A program made the translations under genes and the position numbers. From a virus, in IMG/VR virus record IMGVR_UViG_3300048839_001249, positions 28,689 through 92,688 of that record: a stretch of 64,000 nucleotides of DNA. One strand, given 5' to 3'. How positions within the stretch are numbered: position 1 is the first letter of the stretch; each line of letters opens with the position of its first letter. The notes beneath the pieces were generated by a model, which was not told the origin of the DNA, made no database searches, and was given only the letters and a program-made list of their open reading frames with translations. Shown piece by piece: positions 44,540 to 54,324 of the stretch.

Positions 44540-45111
44540 TGTTTTTTAAAATTAAAAATTTCTTCTTCTTTTACAGGTGGAAATTCAACTTCTCCTTGCC
44601 ATGTTCTATAATCAATACGAACATCATACATTTTGTTAACTGTACTAATAAAACTAATTAATTTCTCTTTGTCTCTTACTAGTACATCCATGTATCTATT
44701 ATTAAATACATGGTTTATTTGCTCTTGAGTGTACATTTTACTATACTTTCCTTCAACAAACTCTGGTTTTGCATCTTCATAATTTTCTGGTATTTGCAGA
44801 ACAATCATGTGTTGATAGCCAGATAGTATATCATCAAATGGATAATCATTTACATAAAATGATTGTGTTTTAATCCATTTAAGTATTTGAGTAAAATTTT
44901 TACAATCAATATCTACAAGTAAAAAAATATGATTTTTATGAACACTGCCAGTAATAAATTGATCTCCTGTTCCTACAGCTAGTTTTTTCAGGCCATTTAT
45001 AGCCTTCATTAGTGTTTTTCCATGGTCACAAAGACAAGGGAGTAAATATTCCCTTGTCTTATTCATGTAAAATTTTCCAATCTCTATTTTCATATCATAT
45101 TGATTCCCCAT
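44536..45111 (-). CDS. Phage hypothetical protein
   Basis: 191 aa with NKT..YLLP, F.EGKYSKMY and EEEIFN segments. Confidence 0.65.
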   Translation of the reverse strand: MGNQYDMKIEIGKFYMNKTREYLLPCLCDHGKTLMKAINGLKKLAVGTGDQFITGSVHKNHIFLLVDIDCKNFTQILKWIKTQSFYVNDYPFDDILSGYQHMIVLQIPENYEDAKPEFVEGKYSKMYTQEQINHVFNNRYMDVLVRDKEKLISFISTVNKMYDVRIDYRTWQGEVEFPPVKEEEIFNFKKQ

Positions 45112-46241
45112 TCAAGATTAAGATTGTTATTATTTTCTTTTATAATTCTGTCAATGTCAAATCCATTATTAAGATGCCATTGATATAGGTCAAGAAGATA
45201 TAAAAATCCTTGTACTGGAGAAAATGATAGTGTTCCTGTTAGTTCATTATCTTGATTTTTAAACATTAGATATTCTCTTCCATATTTACCCATATTTAAA
45301 AATGATTGATTGGCATGATAAATAACTGGATTACCAGTAAAGCTTTTACTTTCAACAATAAATCCAAAACCTTTAATTGCACCAACACTAATACTCATTG
45401 GTTCACTATCTTCACCAATATTAATGGTTAATTTCCAGTTGTTATTTTCCAAATGTCTGTTAATTACTGCAAGATAAAATGCTGCTTGTATGTCATACCT
45501 GAATCTTTTTGCCTGTTCTGGAAATTTTATTACAGGTTCTTCCATTGTTTTAATGTCAAATATTGTAAGATTTCCAACAGCATCAATAACAATTATATCT
45601 GGTAATGCCTTGCATTTTACATTGTTAATCATTGCATAAACAGGCTTTTGATAAATCACATAAAAGTTTTCTTCTACATTTTCAAAGAAATCTTTTGTTT
45701 CATCATGAGTTTTAAGTGATTTTACAATATTATCAATAATAACTTTTTCTTCCAGTGAAATTATCTGTTTACCGATAGATTTTATGGTTTCATCAAAATA
45801 GTTATTACCTTGCTCAAGAATGTTTCTTATTAATGCCTCATCACCATATTTAGGATTCCAGTTATGGTTTCTACAAGCTGAACAAATTAGTTCAGGAAAT
45901 AATGACAGGTTTCCCGGCATAAGTGCAATATCTTCTTCTGATCTTGTTTCAATCAATGTATCAGCAATTTGTTTGATAATTGACATTACTGTTGGAGATG
46001 GTTTTACATCAAGCATTGATACATAAAACTGTTCATTAAAGATTTCTTCTCCTTGTGTTAACATTGTATCCACAGCACTTCCAATAACAAAGCTGGTTAC
46101 TTCATCATAATGTGCTTGTTTTTCTCTTTCTTTGTTAAAGTAATCTACTCCACCAGAAAGTTTTTTTAGAAGACTCTGATTAATATGATCTTCATCATTG
46201 AAATAATTTTCAATCTCTTGTTTGTTTGTTCTGATTATCAT
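45090..46241 (-). CDS. PD-(D/E)XK exonuclease (RecE/ExoVIII, DUF3799-like)
   Basis: QSLLK, GSAVD, CKALPD, FDIKT and YDIQAAFY motifs. Confidence 0.85.
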   Translation of the reverse strand: MIIRTNKQEIENYFNDEDHINQSLLKKLSGGVDYFNKEREKQAHYDEVTSFVIGSAVDTMLTQGEEIFNEQFYVSMLDVKPSPTVMSIIKQIADTLIETRSEEDIALMPGNLSLFPELICSACRNHNWNPKYGDEALIRNILEQGNNYFDETIKSIGKQIISLEEKVIIDNIVKSLKTHDETKDFFENVEENFYVIYQKPVYAMINNVKCKALPDIIVIDAVGNLTIFDIKTMEEPVIKFPEQAKRFRYDIQAAFYLAVINRHLENNNWKLTINIGEDSEPMSISVGAIKGFGFIVESKSFTGNPVIYHANQSFLNMGKYGREYLMFKNQDNELTGTLSFSPVQGFLYLLDLYQWHLNNGFDIDRIIKENNNNLNLEWGINMI

Positions 46242-46605
46242 GTGATATTAATTTTTTAAAGTCTTGAAATGTCATTGTAACAATTTCATCATACTCATTT
46301 CTTTTATTTCCACTTCCTACTTTTTTCTTGTGTATGATGATTTTAGGGTAGTCTGGATGATCTGGAATAAATTCCTTTAATGCATCATTCATTTCTTTTA
46401 GTATTTTAATAGGATTAAGACCTCTTTGTATTCCAGCTTTTGCTTGCACATAAAATGGAATATTCATTAAATCTACTTTACAGGAATCATATAATCTGCT
46501 TCCTTGTCTTGATGTAATGCATCTTTTAAATCCTAAATTTCTAAATTCTTGGGCATAGTACCTTTCAGCATTATGTCCAAGAGTTCTATTTTTAGCATTA
46601 CTCAT
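46210..46605 (-). CDS. Holliday junction resolvase-like PD-(D/E)XK nuclease
   Basis: NR..GH.AER, VDL and VQAK pattern. Confidence 0.65.
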   Translation of the reverse strand: MSNAKNRTLGHNAERYYAQEFRNLGFKRCITSRQGSRLYDSCKVDLMNIPFYVQAKAGIQRGLNPIKILKEMNDALKEFIPDHPDYPKIIIHKKKVGSGNKRNEYDEIVTMTFQDFKKLISHDNQNKQTRD

Positions 46606-46622
46606 GTATTAAAATTATTATA

Positions 46623-47258
46623 TTAACTGTTTGTGAGACTTATTTCCATTAGATTATTCTTTATTCTTTGGTTTATCATTTCCAAATCATTTACAGTTTT
46701 AATTTTTATTTTAAACTGATATGGAATAAAGCAATAATTTTGAATTTTATTTGTCATAATTACATCATAATAATTTCTAACATCATAAAGCAAACCTTTA
46801 TTTATTATCCAACTAGTTAATTTTTTATATTCGAAAATTTCACTATTAACTAGTATTTTAATATGGTCAGAACTAATGAAAAAATTTTCACCTGACAATA
46901 ATTTTGCCATTATTATTGATGATGAGTTTATTGCTGCAAGTAAAACTATTTCATTATTAACTGATATATATCCATATCCATATTGAATTGTAATATTGTC
47001 CGGTGAATAAAAAATTGTGGTTGGACTACACCATTTATCATTATAATTCCTTAATGCTGATATTTTTTTTGTTGATGTTCTTATAGAATTAGCTATTATT
47101 TTAGATGAATAATATAACTTTTCATTTATTACCATTCCTTCATTTAATGCATATAATGGTATTAATTCATTATCACTTGAACAGCAGATATTACCAACAT
47201 CATAATGATATTTTATGGGATTAAATTGTATGGGATTAAATTGTATGTAATTTATCAT
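46623..47258 (-). CDS. AT-rich hypothetical protein coupled to the E1 gene
   Basis: ATGA overlap with the ThiF stop; 211 aa. Confidence 0.6.
   Translation of the reverse strand: MINYIQFNPIQFNPIKYHYDVGNICCSSDNELIPLYALNEGMVINEKLYYSSKIIANSIRTSTKKISALRNYNDKWCSPTTIFYSPDNITIQYGYGYISVNNEIVLLAAINSSSIIMAKLLSGENFFISSDHIKILVNSEIFEYKKLTSWIINKGLLYDVRNYYDVIMTNKIQNYCFIPYQFKIKIKTVNDLEMINQRIKNNLMEISLTNS
47214..47247. repeat. 15-bp tandem duplication TATGGGATTAAATTG
   Basis: Two exact copies; encode IQFNP-IQFNP in frame. Confidence 0.9.
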
Positions 47259-47935
47259 AGTACAATATCAGTTTTTAATAATGGTACAAAATATTCATAG
47301 TAAAATGGTACAGTACGATATTTTTCTCCTGTTATGATATTAGCTGCATGATTTGTTAAAAATGCTGTCATTAAGCTTGCTATCATTGCTGCTGTATGTG
47401 ATGTTTGTGTTGTTGTGCAACTTAGATTTTCAACATCTTCATCACCAAATAAGAAATTTTCCTCATAGCGTTTCATTATTTCAGGATCAGTAGTAACACA
47501 AAATATTTGAATTTGCTCAAAAAGTAATCTTCCATCAATTAATAATGCATTTTGATCATTTTGATTATTTTCTTTCCATCTATGATACATTATTCTTCTT
47601 GCTTCCATATTATCAAATCCTGATAACATAATAGAAGATGTTATTGATGTTGTATCATACTTGGCATTTACTCCTTGTATATTAATTTTTGAAAAATCAG
47701 AAACATTGTTTTTTAATGCTACTATTTTTCTATCACCTACTTGTGACCATCTAACAAATTGTCCACCAACATTGTGTTCTTCAAAAATATCATCATCAAA
47801 TACTATACATACTATTCCTATTCTCGAAAGAAGTAATGTAAGCCATGATGAAATTCCACCTGCACCACCCACAATAATCTTTTTTCCTTTTAAATATGGA
47901 TACCATATTGCATCTTTAAATCTATCATTGTACAT
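47255..47935 (-). CDS. ThiF/MoeB/E1-like adenylyltransferase
   Basis: GGAGGISSW nucleotide loop, FDDD..EEHN..GQ, K, GFDNMEAR, DGR; candidate catalytic Cys in NLSCTTTQT. Confidence 0.9.
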   Translation of the reverse strand: MYNDRFKDAIWYPYLKGKKIIVGGAGGISSWLTLLLSRIGIVCIVFDDDIFEEHNVGGQFVRWSQVGDRKIVALKNNVSDFSKINIQGVNAKYDTTSITSSIMLSGFDNMEARRIMYHRWKENNQNDQNALLIDGRLLFEQIQIFCVTTDPEIMKRYEENFLFGDEDVENLSCTTTQTSHTAAMIASLMTAFLTNHAANIITGEKYRTVPFYYEYFVPLLKTDIVL

Positions 47936-49007
47936 ACTTTTTCGTTTTAAAGTTAGCTTTTACAAAATCATTAATCAACTTTTCCATTATTTTTACTATT
48001 GGGTATTTTATGGATTTAAGTGCTTTTAAATATTCATTTATTACTTCAATTGGGTCAATTGGTTCTCCAGGAACATAGTAATTTAATATGTCTTCTGCAA
48101 GATTGTTAACAGCTAGAGTCATTAATTGAATGGCTTCTTCTCTATTATCATGATTTTGTAATATTGAAAATGCTTGATCTGCTGTATGAACCATAGCATC
48201 AATTTCCATAATACTTTCTGCTTCCAGATTATAACATATAAAGTCATCAATATTAAGTTTATCTGAATCTTTACTTGTAATTTTTTTGTTTTGATTTTTT
48301 GGAAATACAAATTCATCAGATACCGAAGAATTTTTTCCAAAACCTATTACATTATTGTGAGATGTTTGTACTGCAACAACTTTTGTCTTTTTATTTATTT
48401 TTTCATATCTATCTGAGAATTGTGATCCAACTTCATGTTGAATATCAGCGACAAACTTGCAGTCATAAGTACATACACTTAGTATTTGGTTTTTTATTTT
48501 AAGGTTGTAATATTCACCATTACCCTTTCTTGCTTTGATTGTAGACATTGGTTCTATCGTAAATGCAATTTTACCTTTCATTTCCAGAAATGTATTTACA
48601 ATTACTGAAAGATAAAAATTATGATGTTCAGCATTTTCTACAAGCTCATCTAAGTCTGTACCTGAAAAGAATACACTCATCAGATTGTGGCTATGAATAT
48701 GTCCCATTTTCCAACTCAGTGAGTCAGGATTATTCATTCTGAATTCAACAATAGATTTATCCAGTTTATAGTCTGTTGCTGCACCTGTTCCTATATCCAT
48801 TAAAAAGATATATTGTAATACTATTAACATATTTTTAGGTTTATCTATATCACCATCAACGGTGTAAAATAATATACCTGACCATTCTTTTTGTGGAACT
48901 TTTGAAACAAGATATTTTACTTGTTCTGAAAATCTCTTGGTTATAGAAACTTTTACCTGACTTTCAAGAGGGATTATTTTTAGATTTTTTTGTTGCATAA
49001 TATTCAA
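47925..49007 (-). CDS. JAB/MPN+ (JAMM) metallo-isopeptidase with C-terminal extension
   Basis: EWSG glutamate plus HSH-x7-S-x2-D (HSHNLMSVFFSGTD). Confidence 0.9.
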   Translation of the reverse strand: MNIMQQKNLKIIPLESQVKVSITKRFSEQVKYLVSKVPQKEWSGILFYTVDGDIDKPKNMLIVLQYIFLMDIGTGAATDYKLDKSIVEFRMNNPDSLSWKMGHIHSHNLMSVFFSGTDLDELVENAEHHNFYLSVIVNTFLEMKGKIAFTIEPMSTIKARKGNGEYYNLKIKNQILSVCTYDCKFVADIQHEVGSQFSDRYEKINKKTKVVAVQTSHNNVIGFGKNSSVSDEFVFPKNQNKKITSKDSDKLNIDDFICYNLEAESIMEIDAMVHTADQAFSILQNHDNREEAIQLMTLAVNNLAEDILNYYVPGEPIDPIEVINEYLKALKSIKYPIVKIMEKLINDFVKANFKTKKYVQ

Positions 49008-50070
49008 GCATTTTAAAATTTAATATTCCGTTTAATGTTTCAATAATAATAGTTTTTACTAATGGATGTATAGTTAATACTGGATTTTCTATCAATTTTC
49101 CATATACAATTGTTTGCAATTCTTTATTGTTAAACATTATTTCATATTTATGAGTATATGTTTTGTCGTTGGTTATTACATTAATGTCATAGTATTTACC
49201 TTTACTTTCTAAGTATGAATAATCAGAAAAATGATAGCTTAAAAAATTAATAAGATATTCATCTTCTATAATTTCATATCTCATTTTTTCATAAGAAAAT
49301 TCAAAATTGATGTTTTCATCTGAGATTAAAGTAAATTTAAATAAATCTATACATTTAAGTTGTATATTTCTTTCATTTATAGAATTCAATATTACTTCGT
49401 TTCCATAATCTTTTATAGTCTCAATTTTTATATATGGAACTCCTTCAAGTGATTCCCATGATAAGTAAGGTTCAATTTGAAGTAAAAGTAATGTAAGCAA
49501 TTCATTACTAAATAAATTTGGAATTTTCAACTTGTTTACTAATGTTGAAAGTTCGTCATTACCAATACAAAAATTAGCAGAAAATAATGTTTGTATAATT
49601 GATAAACTTTGTACTGGTAAATGACTGTGTATATAACCATTTACAAATTCTCCATTACTAAATGTTGTTCTTATTCCTTTTATTTTTTGAATTGAAAGTC
49701 CGTTTTTATGTTCAAAATTTATTATTACATATAGGTCTTTTATTTCATTTTTATCATTATTTGTATTTGTTATAGTGATGTTATCATATTTAATGATTAG
49801 TCTTAATGAAAACTGTATGTGAAATTTCATATGATATTCATATACTATGTATTCATAAGCATCATGTAAATCATTATTCTTACAATTATGTGAATATAAT
49901 TGAATTTCAAATTGATTATCATCAAATACTTTACTTGCAATATTAAATATTGTTTCCCAATCATCAGCCATACTTTTTTCACATCTATTTTTCAAATATA
50001 AATATTCAATGGTTTGTCTGTTGATTATATTTTCCTTGTTTATTTTTTTAATAAATTCATATACATACAT
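48964..50070 (-). CDS. Prokaryotic E2-like (UBC-fold) protein
   Basis: GYIHSHLP...NFCIG with Cys at 49567-49569, resembling the E2 HPN...C arrangement; lies between the Ubl and JAB genes. Confidence 0.6.
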   Translation of the reverse strand: MYVYEFIKKINKENIINRQTIEYLYLKNRCEKSMADDWETIFNIASKVFDDNQFEIQLYSHNCKNNDLHDAYEYIVYEYHMKFHIQFSLRLIIKYDNITITNTNNDKNEIKDLYVIINFEHKNGLSIQKIKGIRTTFSNGEFVNGYIHSHLPVQSLSIIQTLFSANFCIGNDELSTLVNKLKIPNLFSNELLTLLLLQIEPYLSWESLEGVPYIKIETIKDYGNEVILNSINERNIQLKCIDLFKFTLISDENINFEFSYEKMRYEIIEDEYLINFLSYHFSDYSYLESKGKYYDINVITNDKTYTHKYEIMFNNKELQTIVYGKLIENPVLTIHPLVKTIIIETLNGILNFKMLEYYATKKSKNNPS

Positions 50071-50084
50071 AATATTTAAAAATT

Positions 50085-50115
50085 AAAAAAGGGGAAATGC
50101 AGTATCTCCCCCTTT
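50085..50115 (-). terminator. Intrinsic terminator after the Ubl gene
   Basis: Minus strand AAAGGGGGAG-atactgcatt-TCCCC followed by TTTTTT. Confidence 0.7.
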
Positions 50116-50135
50116 ATTATGAATGAAATTATTTT

Positions 50136-50858
50136 TTACAGACCAAACTCTCTTTTGATTCTTTCAGCATCATCTTTGAGTTTCTTCTTTTGTTCAGCAG
50201 TAATAATTGCTGATTCTTGGATTGCTGGTTCACCGGGATGTTTTGCTATGAAATCATTGAGTAATTTTTCTGCATCATTTAAGAATGATATTGCAGTTTT
50301 GATTGGTTCAAGGTCAATTGGCTCTGCTGTTGTTTTTTCAACAGCTTTTTCAATAACTTCGTCAATAACCTCTTCAGTTACTTCCTCAGTTACTTCTTCT
50401 TTGACCTTTTTAGGTTTTTCAGTTTTCTTTGGCTTTTCTTCTGACTTTTTGGTTTCTGATTTACCAGTCATTTTGTTGAGCCATGCTTTGAGCAAATTTT
50501 TCATTTCATCTGTGGATTTGTTTGTGTAATTTTTGTCTTTATTGAAGTGCTCAGCAGCTTCTTTGTTTTCAGCAATAGTTTCTTTAATTGCACTTCTCAA
50601 ATCCTTGTAGCTCATTTTGTCGACATCCATTCCACTTTTTACCTTGATAGGCATCAAAAAAAGTGTAAATTTGTCACTTGGAAGTTCAGCATTTGCAACT
50701 TCAAGTGTATGTCTGTTTTCACCAATAACAGCTTTCATGTTCTTGTGACTTACTCCATTTTCAGTAAGTACACCTTGGAGTTCTCCCCATGTTTTAGCAT
50801 TGCTACTGATGATTTTACCATCTTGTCCTGATGTTGAATAAATTGTGATTGTTCTCAT
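50136..50858 (-). CDS. Ubiquitin-like (beta-grasp) domain, residues 1-76 ending KVKSG, fused to a helical/charged C-terminal extension
   Basis: Strand-strand-helix (TWGELQGVL)-strand pattern, LP..FTLFL terminal strand, Gly76 at 50633-50631; operon with E2, JAB and E1. Confidence 0.7.
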   Translation of the reverse strand: MRTITIYSTSGQDGKIISSNAKTWGELQGVLTENGVSHKNMKAVIGENRHTLEVANAELPSDKFTLFLMPIKVKSGMDVDKMSYKDLRSAIKETIAENKEAAEHFNKDKNYTNKSTDEMKNLLKAWLNKMTGKSETKKSEEKPKKTEKPKKVKEEVTEEVTEEVIDEVIEKAVEKTTAEPIDLEPIKTAISFLNDAEKLLNDFIAKHPGEPAIQESAIITAEQKKKLKDDAERIKREFGL

Positions 50859-50861
50859 TTT

Positions 50862-51494
50862 TTACCAGTTAATTAATAATTTGTTATTTTCTTTTAAAAG
50901 TTCATTTACTTTAATGAAATGCCTACATCCTGTAAATTTGACAATATTTCCATATGCCTCTGCAGCAGGATGTGGTGCTGTTAGAATTGTATTTCCTTCT
51001 TTTTCTATTATTGGGATAAATGTTTGTGCATATTTTCCCCATAACATCCAAATACAAGGATTATTTGTTGCAATATAGGATATAATTTTTGTGGTGATAG
51101 GTTTCCATAATGATGTATGACTACCAGCATTTTTCTTTTCAACAGTTAGTGCTGTATTAAGTAGAAACACACCTTGATTTACCCAATCCTGTAATGTTTT
51201 GTCAATTGGATGTCCAATTTCCTTTTCAATAACTTTTAAGGAGAATGGTTTTTTTGTATCATGACTTACAGCAAAGGCATATCCTATGGCTTGTCCTTCT
51301 TGAGGATAAGGGTCTTGTCCTAGTATTACTACTCTTATTTGATTTACTGGCATCCTAAAAACATTAAATACATCTTTTGATAATGGATAAAAATTGTCGG
51401 GATTTAATTTATTGATTTTTATCCATTCTGGAAGCATTTTTATTTCTGCGAATAGCTCAGTCCAACTGTCATGAATGATGTCTACTAGCTTCAT
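50862..51494 (-). CDS. ung: Uracil-DNA glycosylase (family 1)
   Basis: VVILGQDPYP, QGVFLLNTALTV, LWG and HP motifs. Confidence 0.95.
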   Translation of the reverse strand: MKLVDIIHDSWTELFAEIKMLPEWIKINKLNPDNFYPLSKDVFNVFRMPVNQIRVVILGQDPYPQEGQAIGYAFAVSHDTKKPFSLKVIEKEIGHPIDKTLQDWVNQGVFLLNTALTVEKKNAGSHTSLWKPITTKIISYIATNNPCIWMLWGKYAQTFIPIIEKEGNTILTAPHPAAEAYGNIVKFTGCRHFIKVNELLKENNKLLINW

Positions 51495-52495
51495 AATATA
51501 TTATTTTTTTTGAAAAATTCAATCAATGGTTTTTCACCTATGTTTTTTTGAATTTCTGCAGGATCATTAAAATGAGGTGTAATAAATCCTTTAGCCTTAT
51601 TTGGATTGTAACTATTAAAAGCTGCTACAACTCTTTCAACAGCTTTTTTTCCAGCATCATCATTATCAAACATTATTGATATATTTTCAAATCTTTTTGA
51701 TAATGATATAATAATAGGTATATCAGGTAATATTCCTTCATTTTGGAACCAAATAACATCTTTTTTACCTAAGTTTCTAATTACTCTACAGTCTTTATAG
51801 CTTTTGGTAATAAGCAAATTAGTTCCTCTAGAAGAAATATTCCTGATATTTCCTATATCATTTTTGTTACAATTTGTTATCCACTTATTGTTATAATTTA
51901 CTGTTGTAGGACAATAAATTTTCACCCTAGGATTAAATTCAAAAAGAGCATATGAAGGTTTTCTTGGTCTGACAGTAAATGAATTTTGATTTTTTGTTAG
52001 TTTATACCATCTTACAGCATACACATGATCTTCAATTAATTGAGATTTTTTAATATTATATTGAGACCAGTATTTACCATCTTCTTTGATATAGTTTCTT
52101 GGATGAAATATAATTTGTGTATTCTTCTCCTTGTTTTTTGTAATAATATTATTTTGTGCAATAACTGGTTTAACATTTGTTGATGAATAGCCGAGTCCAA
52201 GTGTAAAATGCTTATTTATCAATTCCAATGTTTCTTTAAAATTTGTACCATAATATGCACTAATAAAATTAAAACAATCCATTGGTGAATTTGAAAATCC
52301 AAAATCCACAAAATATAATTTTCCATTATACCTTTCAAAGTAACAACCAGCAGAAGAATCATTCTTCCTTAATGGTGAAAGGAAAAATTCTCCTTCTACT
52401 GGTTTTAATACCATGCTAAAAATATCCTCTTGAGATACTCTTAATAGTATTTGTTCTAATGTTAATGGTATAAATTCACAAAAACCATAGTTCAT
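51491..52495 (-). CDS. dnaG: DNA primase (Toprim), crAss-type
   Basis: SPLR..D N-terminal domain, ITKSYKD, and FDNDDAG Toprim motif. Confidence 0.8.
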   Translation of the reverse strand: MNYGFCEFIPLTLEQILLRVSQEDIFSMVLKPVEGEFFLSPLRKNDSSAGCYFERYNGKLYFVDFGFSNSPMDCFNFISAYYGTNFKETLELINKHFTLGLGYSSTNVKPVIAQNNIITKNKEKNTQIIFHPRNYIKEDGKYWSQYNIKKSQLIEDHVYAVRWYKLTKNQNSFTVRPRKPSYALFEFNPRVKIYCPTTVNYNNKWITNCNKNDIGNIRNISSRGTNLLITKSYKDCRVIRNLGKKDVIWFQNEGILPDIPIIISLSKRFENISIMFDNDDAGKKAVERVVAAFNSYNPNKAKGFITPHFNDPAEIQKNIGEKPLIEFFKKNNIL

Positions 52496-53601: not shown

Positions 53602-54324
53602 TTATGTTATTACTTGGACTCCTGTATTATATGCATCTATGTGTTTTATTACATATCCCATGTCATTTGGAATATAAAGGTCATTAAACATTCCTATTGG
53701 ACTTTTTGCAGGATAATCACCGTCATAGTTTGTTACAAATACTTTTTCAACTGTTTTCTCCTGATCGTTAAATCTTTGAGTACCAAAGAGTACAATTTCA
53801 AATTTTCCTTCTGGTGTAATGTATTGATTTGTCATCTTTCCTACAGTTTTCATTCTGAAAGAAAGTTTACCAGCATTATCAATATTGTATTCTTCAAAGT
53901 GAGCCATCATGATGAAATGTTTTTCAATAGGAACTAAGTTTATAGCATCGAATATTGCTCCCATAAACAATCCTATCTTTTTAAAAACATCATATCCTGA
54001 TTTCATTGCATTGTTCATATAATAATCTTGCATAAGATAATTAGTATCATCAACTACAATGTTTCTTATTCTTTCACTTTTTGCAAGTACTTTAATACCA
54101 GTTGCAACAGTATTGGCATCATTTGTGTACCAGTAATTACCATCCATGGGTTCTTTACCTTTTTTGTAATTATTCATCCATCCTGCAAATGGTAATCCTT
54201 TATTTGCACATGCAATAATAAAAGTTTCTTTAGGGTCTAATCCCTCAATATTGAGTTCTGGTACATTACCCAATGATGTACTTTTACCCATTCCACTTTC
54301 TGCTAGTACTAATATTTTTGACAT
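53602..54324 (-). CDS. AAA_24/Sak4-like P-loop ATPase
   Basis: AESGMGKST Walker A, IVVDD Walker B, AKSP.GMF. Confidence 0.85.
   Translation of the reverse strand: MSKILVLAESGMGKSTSLGNVPELNIEGLDPKETFIIACANKGLPFAGWMNNYKKGKEPMDGNYWYTNDANTVATGIKVLAKSERIRNIVVDDTNYLMQDYYMNNAMKSGYDVFKKIGLFMGAIFDAINLVPIEKHFIMMAHFEEYNIDNAGKLSFRMKTVGKMTNQYITPEGKFEIVLFGTQRFNDQEKTVEKVFVTNYDGDYPAKSPIGMFNDLYIPNDMGYVIKHIDAYNTGVQVIT

Follow-up and report, generated by a model that had tools for sequence, protein, structure and literature searches.

The only bacterial systems in which ubiquitin-type protein conjugation has been demonstrated to date are those of host defense, namely, type II CBASS, Bil, and Bub. In the BilABCD and CEHH/6C operons, the genes for a ubiquitin-like protein (Ubl), an E2, a JAB peptidase, and an E1 follow one another in the order Ubl-E2-JAB-E1, and the deubiquitinase cleaves a Ubl fusion (PMC10557695). 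In the Bub (6E/DUF6527) system, neither the E1 nor the E2 has a catalytic Cys; both act via Tyr and Ser oxyesters, and the protease is a DUF6527 serine protease (PMC11601596). In phages lambda and T1, TAPI (a Ubl with a C-terminal domain) is accompanied by TAPK (JAB and NlpC/P60), and a cut is predicted after the conserved Gly of the Ubl (PMC1779556). In this study, we describe a cassette of five genes (46623-50858, minus strand) in which the machinery is viral. It lies in a 64,000-nucleotide stretch, hereafter called the window, of the 92,688-bp IMG/VR virus record IMGVR_UViG_3300048839_001249, which was judged to be about 98% complete and represents a crAss-like/Fipvunavirus-like phage. The cassette probably specifies a phage-encoded pathway of ubiquitin-like processing and conjugation, with its genes in the fixed order Ubl precursor, E2-like protein, JAB, E1, and a fifth protein, X.

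The original prediction, made from the letters of the window, had described a complete operon of four consecutive minus-strand genes. All four open reading frames (ORFs) are present: the Ubl precursor gene (50136-50858, 240 amino acids (aa); phrog_15560 at 1.4e-21), the gene of the E2-like protein (48964-50070, 368 aa; phrog_15310), the JAMM/JAB metallopeptidase gene (47925-49007, 360 aa, TTG start), and the ThiF/E1-like gene (47255-47935, 226 aa; phrog_15670 at 5e-73). The motifs that it had named are likewise all found, namely, KVKSG at residues 72 to 76 of the Ubl, HSH at 148 to 150 and FC at 167 and 168 of the E2-like protein, E41...H105-S-H107-x7-S115-x2-D118 in the JAB, and GGAGG at 23 to 27 together with Cys173 in the E1. 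The four parts hold, but the count of four does not, since a fifth conserved gene (46623-47258, minus strand, 211 aa) follows the E1 gene and lies between it and the nuclease genes. The order Ubl, E2-like protein, JAB, and E1 was found in every analyzed locus (about 80 viral loci) except those truncated at the end of a contig. The loci were obtained by searching IMG/VR with two degenerate JAB motifs alone, which gave 474 confirmed loci, mostly on contigs of 50 to 100 kb among those analyzed; gene order was read by hidden Markov model searches of all ORFs in the best 80 of the 474 and in four other loci.

Folds and catalytic motifs of the cassette proteins

Residue conservation was counted over about 70 nonidentical homologues from viral contigs, and the conservation of the motifs, as judged from these sequences, is far beyond chance. 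The Ubl gene product consists of a β-grasp domain (residues 1 to 76; 50631-50858, minus strand) that ends with K74-S75-G76, and a C-terminal extension (residues 77 to 240; 50139-50630, minus strand) that is proposed to be released by JAB cleavage after Gly76, which would be the mature C-terminus. The AlphaFold2 (AF2) model of the Ubl (ma7013a7fcbcd; built on 13 homologues, with a mean predicted local distance difference test score (pLDDT) of 77.6) takes a ββαββ arrangement in the β-grasp domain with a pLDDT of 88 to 96 (about 90 for residues 1 to 70), and the confidence is lower around residues 71 to 80. In a Foldseek search against the PDB, ubiquitin, SUMO, ISG15, TtuB, and other Ubl domains were matched with a probability of 1.0. 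VIA, which is independent of Foldseek, aligned 66 to 72 residues with ubiquitin, FAT10, ISG15, and MoaD (Z = 8 to 9.3, root mean square deviation (RMSD) = about 2 Å), and the alignments to ubiquitin, FAT10, and ISG15 reach model residues 72 to 76. The β-grasp fold of residues 1 to 76, which had been set beforehand as a point on which the original prediction could fail, is supported by both methods.

K74 and G76 of the Ubl are invariant among homologues, and the core ends with K-[SAG]-G or D-S-G in every one of 70 distinct homologues. Behind this point the tail is 1 to 252 residues long across homologues, with unrelated compositions; the chain ends 1 to 3 residues past the Gly in three homologues, and tails of 53 to 252 residues are found elsewhere. 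Because K74 and G76 are invariant, short-ended homologues exist, and the tails are unrelated, the Ubl appears to be made as a precursor modifier and not as a fixed two-domain protein. The tail of the window protein is of low complexity and comprises a helical domain with an SY..LR...NYTNKST motif, an acidic and Lys-rich linker, and a terminal helix; in the model, the helices of residues 84 to 131 have a pLDDT of >88, and residues 133 to 161 are disordered. The same helical domain with the SY..LR...NYT..ST motif is present in many Ubl homologues. Other tails are Lys/Ala/Pro-rich and resemble histone H1 (AKAAKP...KKAAAKK), and still others are strongly acidic, being rich in D/E with W; sharply differing tails are seen at L035 (4141-4698) and L046 (4168-4698) and also at L065, L075, L081, and L086. 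Two tandem Ubl-like ORFs (95 and 218 aa) occur in one locus, as do two tandem E2-like genes (350 and 365 aa) in another; the loci listed for these tandem genes are L070 (4013-6083) and L005 (4007-4955). No Pfam or NCBIfam family was found for the Ubl or its homologues. A set of 5.8 billion proteins gave no candidate for a short stand-alone Ubl homologue, and short forms are present in the viral loci.

The identity of the E2-like protein is the weakest link of the first reading. Its AF2 model, built on 21 homologues, is confident for residues 30 to 220 only; the core (about residues 25 to 225) has a pLDDT of 80 to 94, and the C-terminal region is poorly modeled. The order of the elements in this core is that of the UBC fold, i.e., an N-terminal helix (residues 32 to 48), a meander of four antiparallel strands (54 to 61, 86 to 101, 107 to 121, and 125 to 138), a loop, and C-terminal helices (173 to 182 and 189 to 203). 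The loop carries Tyr146, H148-S149-H150, and F167-C168-x-G170, and a further motif, W205-E-S-L-E-G-x-P212, is located behind the helices. H148-S-H150 is 10 residues past strand 4, and Cys168 is 5 residues ahead of the next helix; going by the order of elements in the model, Cys168 is in the loop between the β-meander and the next helices, which would be the place of the Cys in E2 enzymes. C168 and G170 are each conserved in 75 of 75 homologues and H150 in 74 of 75, and the conserved Cys that the original prediction had called for is thereby found. Conservation of these three residues, at the level of the sequences, is not expected of a noncatalytic UEV-type module.

In an exhaustive VIA search, the UEV domain of Tsg101 was ranked first (Z = 7.0, 134 of 143 residues), followed by the Vps23 UEV domain, E2s, and RWD domains; many E2s were found at Z = 5 to 6, the E2 domain of Cap2 at Z = 4.9, and BubB at Z = 4.6. 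A second-look VIA search again gave Tsg101 UEV (Z = 7.8, 133 of 141 residues, RMSD = 3.4 Å), and nearly all of its top 50 were UEV or E2 domains. In both searches, by far most of the 50 highest-ranked matches are UEV, E2, or RWD domains, with 125 to 142 residues covered. Because the hit list is coherent and the coverage of the target domains is nearly complete, the model supports a UBC-superfamily fold with a UBC/UEV-type core, as had been predicted for the 48964-50070 product. Searches by other routes were less informative. Foldseek against the PDB gave no match at E ≤ 0.001, with UEV, Mms2, and RWD domains scattered in the list; no Pfam or NCBIfam family was found for the window protein or for sets of 21 and 29 homologues; a PDB sequence search was without a match; and the ESM Atlas was uninformative, its model having a pLDDT of 0.30. 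An hhalign comparison with PRTRC_B/Prok-E2_D was not significant (E = 0.19), and only the Cys motif (FCxG/VCMG) was aligned.

The JAB protein contains a catalytic domain (about residues 15 to 210) and a variable, helical C-terminal half (about residues 210 to 360). The zinc-site motif E...H-x-H-x7-S-x2-D is intact, and each of its residues (E41, H105, H107, S115, and D118) is invariant in 73 of 73 homologues. The window protein itself is below Pfam detection; among 33 diverse relatives, Pfam Prok-JAB was matched by 17 and NCBIfam PRTRC_A by 16 (best E = 2.6e-4), the window protein not being among the latter, and the PADLOC JAB model matched the window protein weakly (0.0034). A HMMER scan of 1.84 billion cluster representatives (50% identity) gave 2356 relatives at E ≤ 1e-3. 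A PDB sequence search was without a match, and the alignment profile matched only designed helical repeats in the PDB, via the C-terminal half, which was judged to be spurious. Phages of the Fpv1 type have the JAB gene in two pieces, a 117-aa ORF with the Glu part and a 314-aa ORF with the HxH part, as seen in Flavobacterium phage Fpv1 (L110, KU599877.1, 1432-3724), and it is intact in FpV4 (L001, 7568-8839). The two halves are separated by an insertion of about 1 kb that contains a 249-aa ORF on the opposite strand, whose only resemblance, a very weak one (E = 0.3), is to LAGLIDADG homing endonucleases. This split explains why one JAB protein is represented by two PHROGs families (phrog_21448 and phrog_16107).

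The E1 protein matches Pfam ThiF (PF00899) with 42.2 bits against a cut-off of 28.1 (7e-11). G24/G26/G27, D47, D49, N55, Q59, K70, D108, R113, D134, and R136 are each conserved in 67 of 67 homologues, the N-terminal R5 is invariant, and D108-N109 belongs to the motif set; from this pattern, the adenylation site is judged to be intact. The Arg of the usual N-L-x-R-Q motif, as read from the sequence, is Gly throughout this E1 family (N55-V-G-G-Q59). Cys173 is kept in 66 of 67 homologues and, with its position placed by eye in the sequence, lies beyond the adenylation core, where ThiF and MoeB carry a Cys. With only 226 residues, the protein is too small to accommodate either a rhodanese or a ubiquitin-fold domain. 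NCBIfam models (ThiF, MoeB, PRTRC_ThiF, UbaA, and Cap2-like) align only with the Rossmann half, far below their cut-offs; the best sulfur-carrier score is 46 bits against a cut-off of 159 bits, and PRTRC_ThiF, which was matched in 29 of 29 homologues, scores 35.3 against 144.75 bits. With bona fide PRTRC_ThiF, hhalign gave a probability of 96.5% over 98 columns, i.e., the Rossmann half. In PADLOC, the CBASS E1-E2 models were the best matches (1e-7).

The fifth gene evolves faster than any other member of the cassette. Starting from the window gene, jackhmmer gave three relatives, and the gene was taken for an orphan; this view was overturned by clustering, in which the genes directly after E1 form one family in 60 of 76 distinct loci, including the FpV4 gene and crAss001 Gp75, and by a leave-one-out profile built without the window protein, which identified 46623-47258 at E = 1.2e-13 as the sole match among 149 window ORFs. 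Pairwise identity within the family is about 15 to 20%, and P34 is the sole invariant residue. A profile search against the PDB gave one unrelated match, and the ESM Atlas gave similarities of about 0.8 to viral glutamine-amidotransferase-like clusters, which is the level of the shuffled control. The translation of the 5' end of the gene contains the exact tandem repeat NPIQF-NPIQF.

A terminator-like hairpin with a T-run (50087-50115, minus strand), proposed to be an attenuator or the 3' end of an mRNA, is located in the 65-nt gap between the Ubl and E2-like genes. Its 12-bp GC-containing stem, followed by the T-run, comes directly after the Ubl stop codon. In contrast to this gap, by the ORF coordinates, JAB begins before the E2-like gene has ended and E1 begins before JAB has ended, and the start of the fifth gene overlaps the stop of E1. 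Of 71 distinct related loci, 61 have a hairpin with a T-run in the equivalent gap (median gap length, 58 nt), compared with 0.4% for shuffled gaps; the sequence of the stem differs from locus to locus without any relationship. Since only about 17 nt separate the hairpin from the start codon of the E2-like gene, the genes past it probably need read-through. The position of the hairpin suggests that Ubl mRNA would be more abundant than the mRNAs of the enzymes; because a terminator-like structure follows its gene, the Ubl is probably produced in excess.

Genomic setting and distribution

The GC content of the window is about 0.25 to 0.30, and the strand skew changes near 42 kb; the cassette sits in the minus-strand arm that carries the replication genes. 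The genes transcribed ahead of the cassette encode a Sak4-like ATPase (53602-54324), a toprim primase (51491-52495), and, immediately upstream of the Ubl gene, a uracil-DNA glycosylase (UDG; 50862-51494; NCBIfam 4e-50). Downstream of the fifth gene are a RusA-like resolvase (46210-46605) and a PD-(D/E)XK exonuclease (45090-46241). The location between ung and the nuclease genes is as had been predicted, except for the extra gene (46623-47258) after E1.

Within the phage collection, the cassette has DNA matches only in Fipvunavirus phages of Flavobacterium psychrophilum (FpV4, Fpv1, and relatives; 88 to 92 kb), with 66 to 67% identity spanning E1 and part of the JAB gene. The order Ubl-E2-like protein-JAB-E1 is likewise annotated in FpV4. 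In Bacteroides phage crAss001, the corresponding genes are Gp79, Gp78, Gp77 ("metalloprotease domain"), and Gp76 ("ThiF"), which lie between the primase Gp80 and the UDG Gp74, and tblastn with the JAB identified it in DAC15, Kolpuevirus, and many "uncultured phage cr…" exemplars. The cassette ranges over Flavobacterium, Bacteroides, Chitinophaga, and soil and marine contigs, always within the replication module. It is a fixed part of this module in a very large group of phages, including the cultured phages crAss001 and DAC15 (Bacteroides) and FpV4 (F. psychrophilum), and crAss-like phages are among the most abundant phages of the human gut. That the cassette is phage-borne and conserved in synteny across crAss-like phages agrees with the original prediction. 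Its placement with the Crassvirales stands only in part: the cassette is common to the Crassvirales, whereas the nearest named DNA relatives of the window belong to Fipvunavirus, which NCBI files outside that order. GenBank annotations of the cassette genes are "thiamine biosynthesis protein" and "metalloprotease domain" only, and in the full-text literature, within a coverage that excludes subscription journals, we found no paper linking crAss-like phages with ubiquitin-like, JAB, or ThiF functions.

A search of 185,579 species genomes yielded just 14 loci. Almost all of these are on contigs of metagenome-assembled genomes (MAGs), surrounded by the same phage replication genes, and the cassette is therefore essentially a property of phages. 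The isolate chromosome of Chitinophaga sp. YR573 (L094, NZ_FOJF01000001.1, 3748593-3763207) contains the whole module, i.e., primase, UDG, an 80-aa Ubl ending in ...KSELGRK, E2-like protein, JAB, E1, RusA-like resolvase, and exonuclease, and this may be an integrated or coassembled crAss-like/Fipvunavirus-like phage. Comparable cases were seen on MAG contigs of Puia (L090, 374 kb) and Bacilli (L092, 640 kb). A 41.6-kb contig labeled as an uncultured Nitrososphaerota archaeon MAG (L088, CAZEMX010000008.1) carries the same 14-gene module in the order of the window, with E values to 1e-97, and is almost certainly a phage contig that was binned wrongly. In a Polyangiaceae MAG (L101, JALWFW010000228.1, 6199-7900), E1 (E = 1e-9) and then JAB (5e-12) are found in reverse order, with no detectable homologue of the Ubl or the E2-like protein; this may be a different, bacterial version of the system.

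Proposed pathway and rival explanations

In the conjugation pathway that we propose, the Ubl would be made as a precursor, probably in excess, and the JAMM peptidase would cut after Gly76, which would expose the K-S-G C-terminus and free the variable tail. The compact, probably dimeric ThiF-type E1 would adenylate Gly76 with ATP, and Cys173 may accept the Ubl, which would be transferred to Cys168 of the UBC-fold protein, with His150, Ser149, and Tyr146 nearby. The Ubl would then be joined to lysines of target proteins, with the fifth protein perhaps serving as an adaptor, an E3-like factor, or a substrate, and the JAB could also reverse the mark. A more specific version is that crAss-like and Fipvunavirus-like phages run a complete cascade of their own, which consists of an attenuator-boosted Ubl, JAMM trimming, a minimal E1, and a new UBC-fold family, and which tags phage replication and recombination proteins or host proteins of defense and DNA metabolism, with specificity supplied by the fifth protein. 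We hold this version tentatively and put its chances slightly below even.

Several points weigh against conjugation. The Ubl terminus is a single Gly and not Gly-Gly. The E1 is minimal and has no recognizable domain for recruiting an E2, and the named families closest to it are adenylyltransferases of sulfur carriers. The fold match of the E2-like protein is moderate (Z < 8), its best structural matches are catalytically inactive UEV domains, and nothing in its sequence ties it to an E2 family, PRTRC_B/Prok-E2_D included. The cassette contains no recognizable E3.

Each rival explanation fits some of these facts, and each leaves the Cys of the UBC-fold protein, the Cys of the E1, or the core, nonaccessory status of the cassette unexplained. 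The cassette may carry out processing or acyl-adenylate chemistry without tagging: the β-grasp domain would be a cleavable chaperone or solubility tag, as in ubiquitin-extension fusions and lambda TAPI/TAPK, or the E1 would form a nonprotein conjugate such as the peptide-nucleotide of MccB, and the UBC-fold protein would be a UEV-like binder. The inactive UEV domains at the head of the structural matches are in line with this, as are the best PDB sequence matches of the E1 (MccB and PaaA, E = 0.006), the conservation of the helical tail motif in many Ubl homologues, and the pairs of JAB and Ubl without an E2 that are known in phage tail assembly (PMC1779556). Delivery of the tail, however, cannot be the conserved purpose, because homologues with Ubl tails of 1 to 3 residues retain the E2-like, JAB, and E1 genes; moreover, the practically invariant Cys168 and His150 would be needless in a pure binding module, and Cys173 of the E1 is conserved as well. 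We regard such chemistry as unlikely. We consider a sulfur-carrier pathway to be a little less probable still; here, the E1 would adenylate Gly76, and a Ubl thiocarboxylate would pass its sulfur to a cofactor, small molecule, or nucleic acid base in the manner of ThiS/ThiF, MoaD/MoeB, and TtuB/TtuC, with the Cys/His protein as a persulfide relay and the JAB maturing the carrier only. Although the best named matches of the E1 are the ThiS adenylyltransferase ThiF and thiF_fam2 (29 of 29 homologues, all below cut-offs), the Ubl model also aligns with MoaD and TtuB, and the cassette sits among genes of DNA metabolism, no rhodanese domain, cysteine desulfurase, or acceptor of the ThiG, MoaE, or TtuA type was found in the five-gene set by Pfam, NCBIfam, and PHROGs scans. 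A UBC-fold protein with an invariant Cys at the E2 position is foreign to known sulfur-carrier pathways, and the gene order is that of the conjugating Bil operons.

The least probable of the explanations, in our estimate, is interference with host defense, in which the phage JAB would strip Ubl or cGAS conjugates of host Bil- or CBASS-type systems and the Ubl, E1, and E2-like protein would be decoys that soak up host enzymes. All characterized bacterial E1/E2/JAB/Ubl systems (type II CBASS and Bil) act in defense against phages (PMC11601596, PMC10557695), so phage countermeasures are plausible; a decoy, however, needs no intact adenylation site, no invariant Cys in both E1 and E2, and no strict five-gene synteny, and, across a very broad range of hosts, the cassette belongs to the core of the replication module and does not form a variable accessory anti-defense island. 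If, instead, the cassette does conjugate, phages would have a further means, new to science, of controlling replication or host defense; it would also define new sequence families of Ubl and E2 and give a handle on the uncharacterized PRTRC cassettes. The question can be tested directly in existing phage-host pairs.

Comparison with known systems

Similar to ThiS/ThiF and MoaD/MoeB, in which a ThiF-fold enzyme adenylates the C-terminal Gly of a β-grasp protein, the cassette contains a β-grasp protein and an E1 whose top named matches are these enzymes. The phage E1 is nevertheless below all equivalog cut-offs, sulfur-transfer partners are missing, and a UBC-fold Cys protein and a JAB are present; scans of the cassette and its flanks with Pfam, NCBIfam, and PHROGs found no neighbors of the rhodanese, ThiG, or MoaE type. 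Sulfur carriers end with Gly-Gly, whereas the phage Ubl ends with a single Gly after Lys-Ser. TAPI/TAPK of lambda-type phages are likewise phage-encoded, with a Gly-ended Ubl fused to a further domain and an adjacent JAB, but they are located in the tail module, lack E1 and E2, and belong to unrelated sequence families.

Like the phage cassette, type II CBASS combines E1 adenylation and UBC-fold domains (Cap2) with a JAB (Cap3). In CBASS, however, Cap2 is a fusion of E2 with E1, and a CD-NTase, not a β-grasp Ubl, is conjugated; the phage cassette has no gene for a CD-NTase or an effector. Bub shares a Ubl, an E2, a peptidase, and an E1 with the phage cassette, and its Ubl is released from a fusion by its own peptidase (PMC11601596); the phage cassette differs in its conserved Cys173 and Cys168 and its JAMM peptidase, and Pfam gave no DUF6527 match.

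PRTRC cassettes, which are found on plasmids and integrative elements, contain PRTRC_C (Prok_Ub), PRTRC_B (Prok-E2_D), PRTRC_A (JAB), PRTRC_E, and PRTRC_ThiF. The similarity to them that had been noted earlier is partly borne out: PRTRC_A is the nearest named sequence relative of the phage JAB, and PRTRC_ThiF is among the nearest of the phage E1, but the likeness is distant and weak, and hhalign comparisons of PRTRC_B, PRTRC_C, and PRTRC_E with the phage E2-like protein, the Ubl, and the Ubl tail gave nothing significant. The phage components are below the curated NCBIfam cut-offs, and the phage Ubl carries a long extension. The T-K-G end of the PRTRC Ubl and the H-x-x-H...V-C-L-G-N pattern of the PRTRC E2 resemble K-S-G and H-S-H...F-C-I-G-N, respectively, of the phage proteins. 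No ParB family was found by Pfam, NCBIfam, and PHROGs among 15 distinct window proteins of the cassette and flanks. A Bacteroidota PRTRC cassette (L107, G062:C1:188000-200000) has the order DnaN-like clamp, PRTRC_E, PRTRC_C (ending with TKG), a 464-aa protein with no assigned family, PRTRC_B, PRTRC_ThiF, a 254-aa weakly DndB/ParB-like protein, and a primase-like protein. Since no PRTRC_A or JAB was detected in it, the 464-aa protein may fill the place of the JAB. PRTRC and the phage cassette are both borne by mobile elements. A tie to the replication of mobile DNA is hinted at by the constant place of the phage cassette near primase, UDG, resolvase, and exonuclease genes and likewise by the place of Bacteroidota copies of PRTRC between DnaN-like and primase-like genes.

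The closest parallel in organization is Bil, which has the same four functions in the same gene order. The Ubl of Bil is matured by a JAB that cuts a C-terminal extension, and the phage Ubl is similarly extended, with its cleavage proposed; in the Bil E2, whose UBC fold is diverged, a His is close to the catalytic Cys, and Cys168 and His150 of the phage E2-like protein would correspond to this pair. Bil is encoded by the host, in defense islands, and acts against phages, whereas the phage cassette is encoded by viruses and sits in the replication module of cultured phages. The E1 of type II Bil is multidomain and that of the phage is a minimal 226-residue ThiF, and the phage cassette further differs in its fifth conserved gene and in a Ubl and an E2-like protein that match no known family. 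The PADLOC matches of the cassette are limited to the E1-E2 models of CBASS and, weakly, a JAB model. The best reading is that the cassette works like Bil, whereas its nearest relative by sequence is PRTRC, for JAB and E1 only. If these phages do run such a conjugation cascade, it would be the first ubiquitination-type system encoded by a virus of bacteria and a mirror image of the Bil defense of the host.

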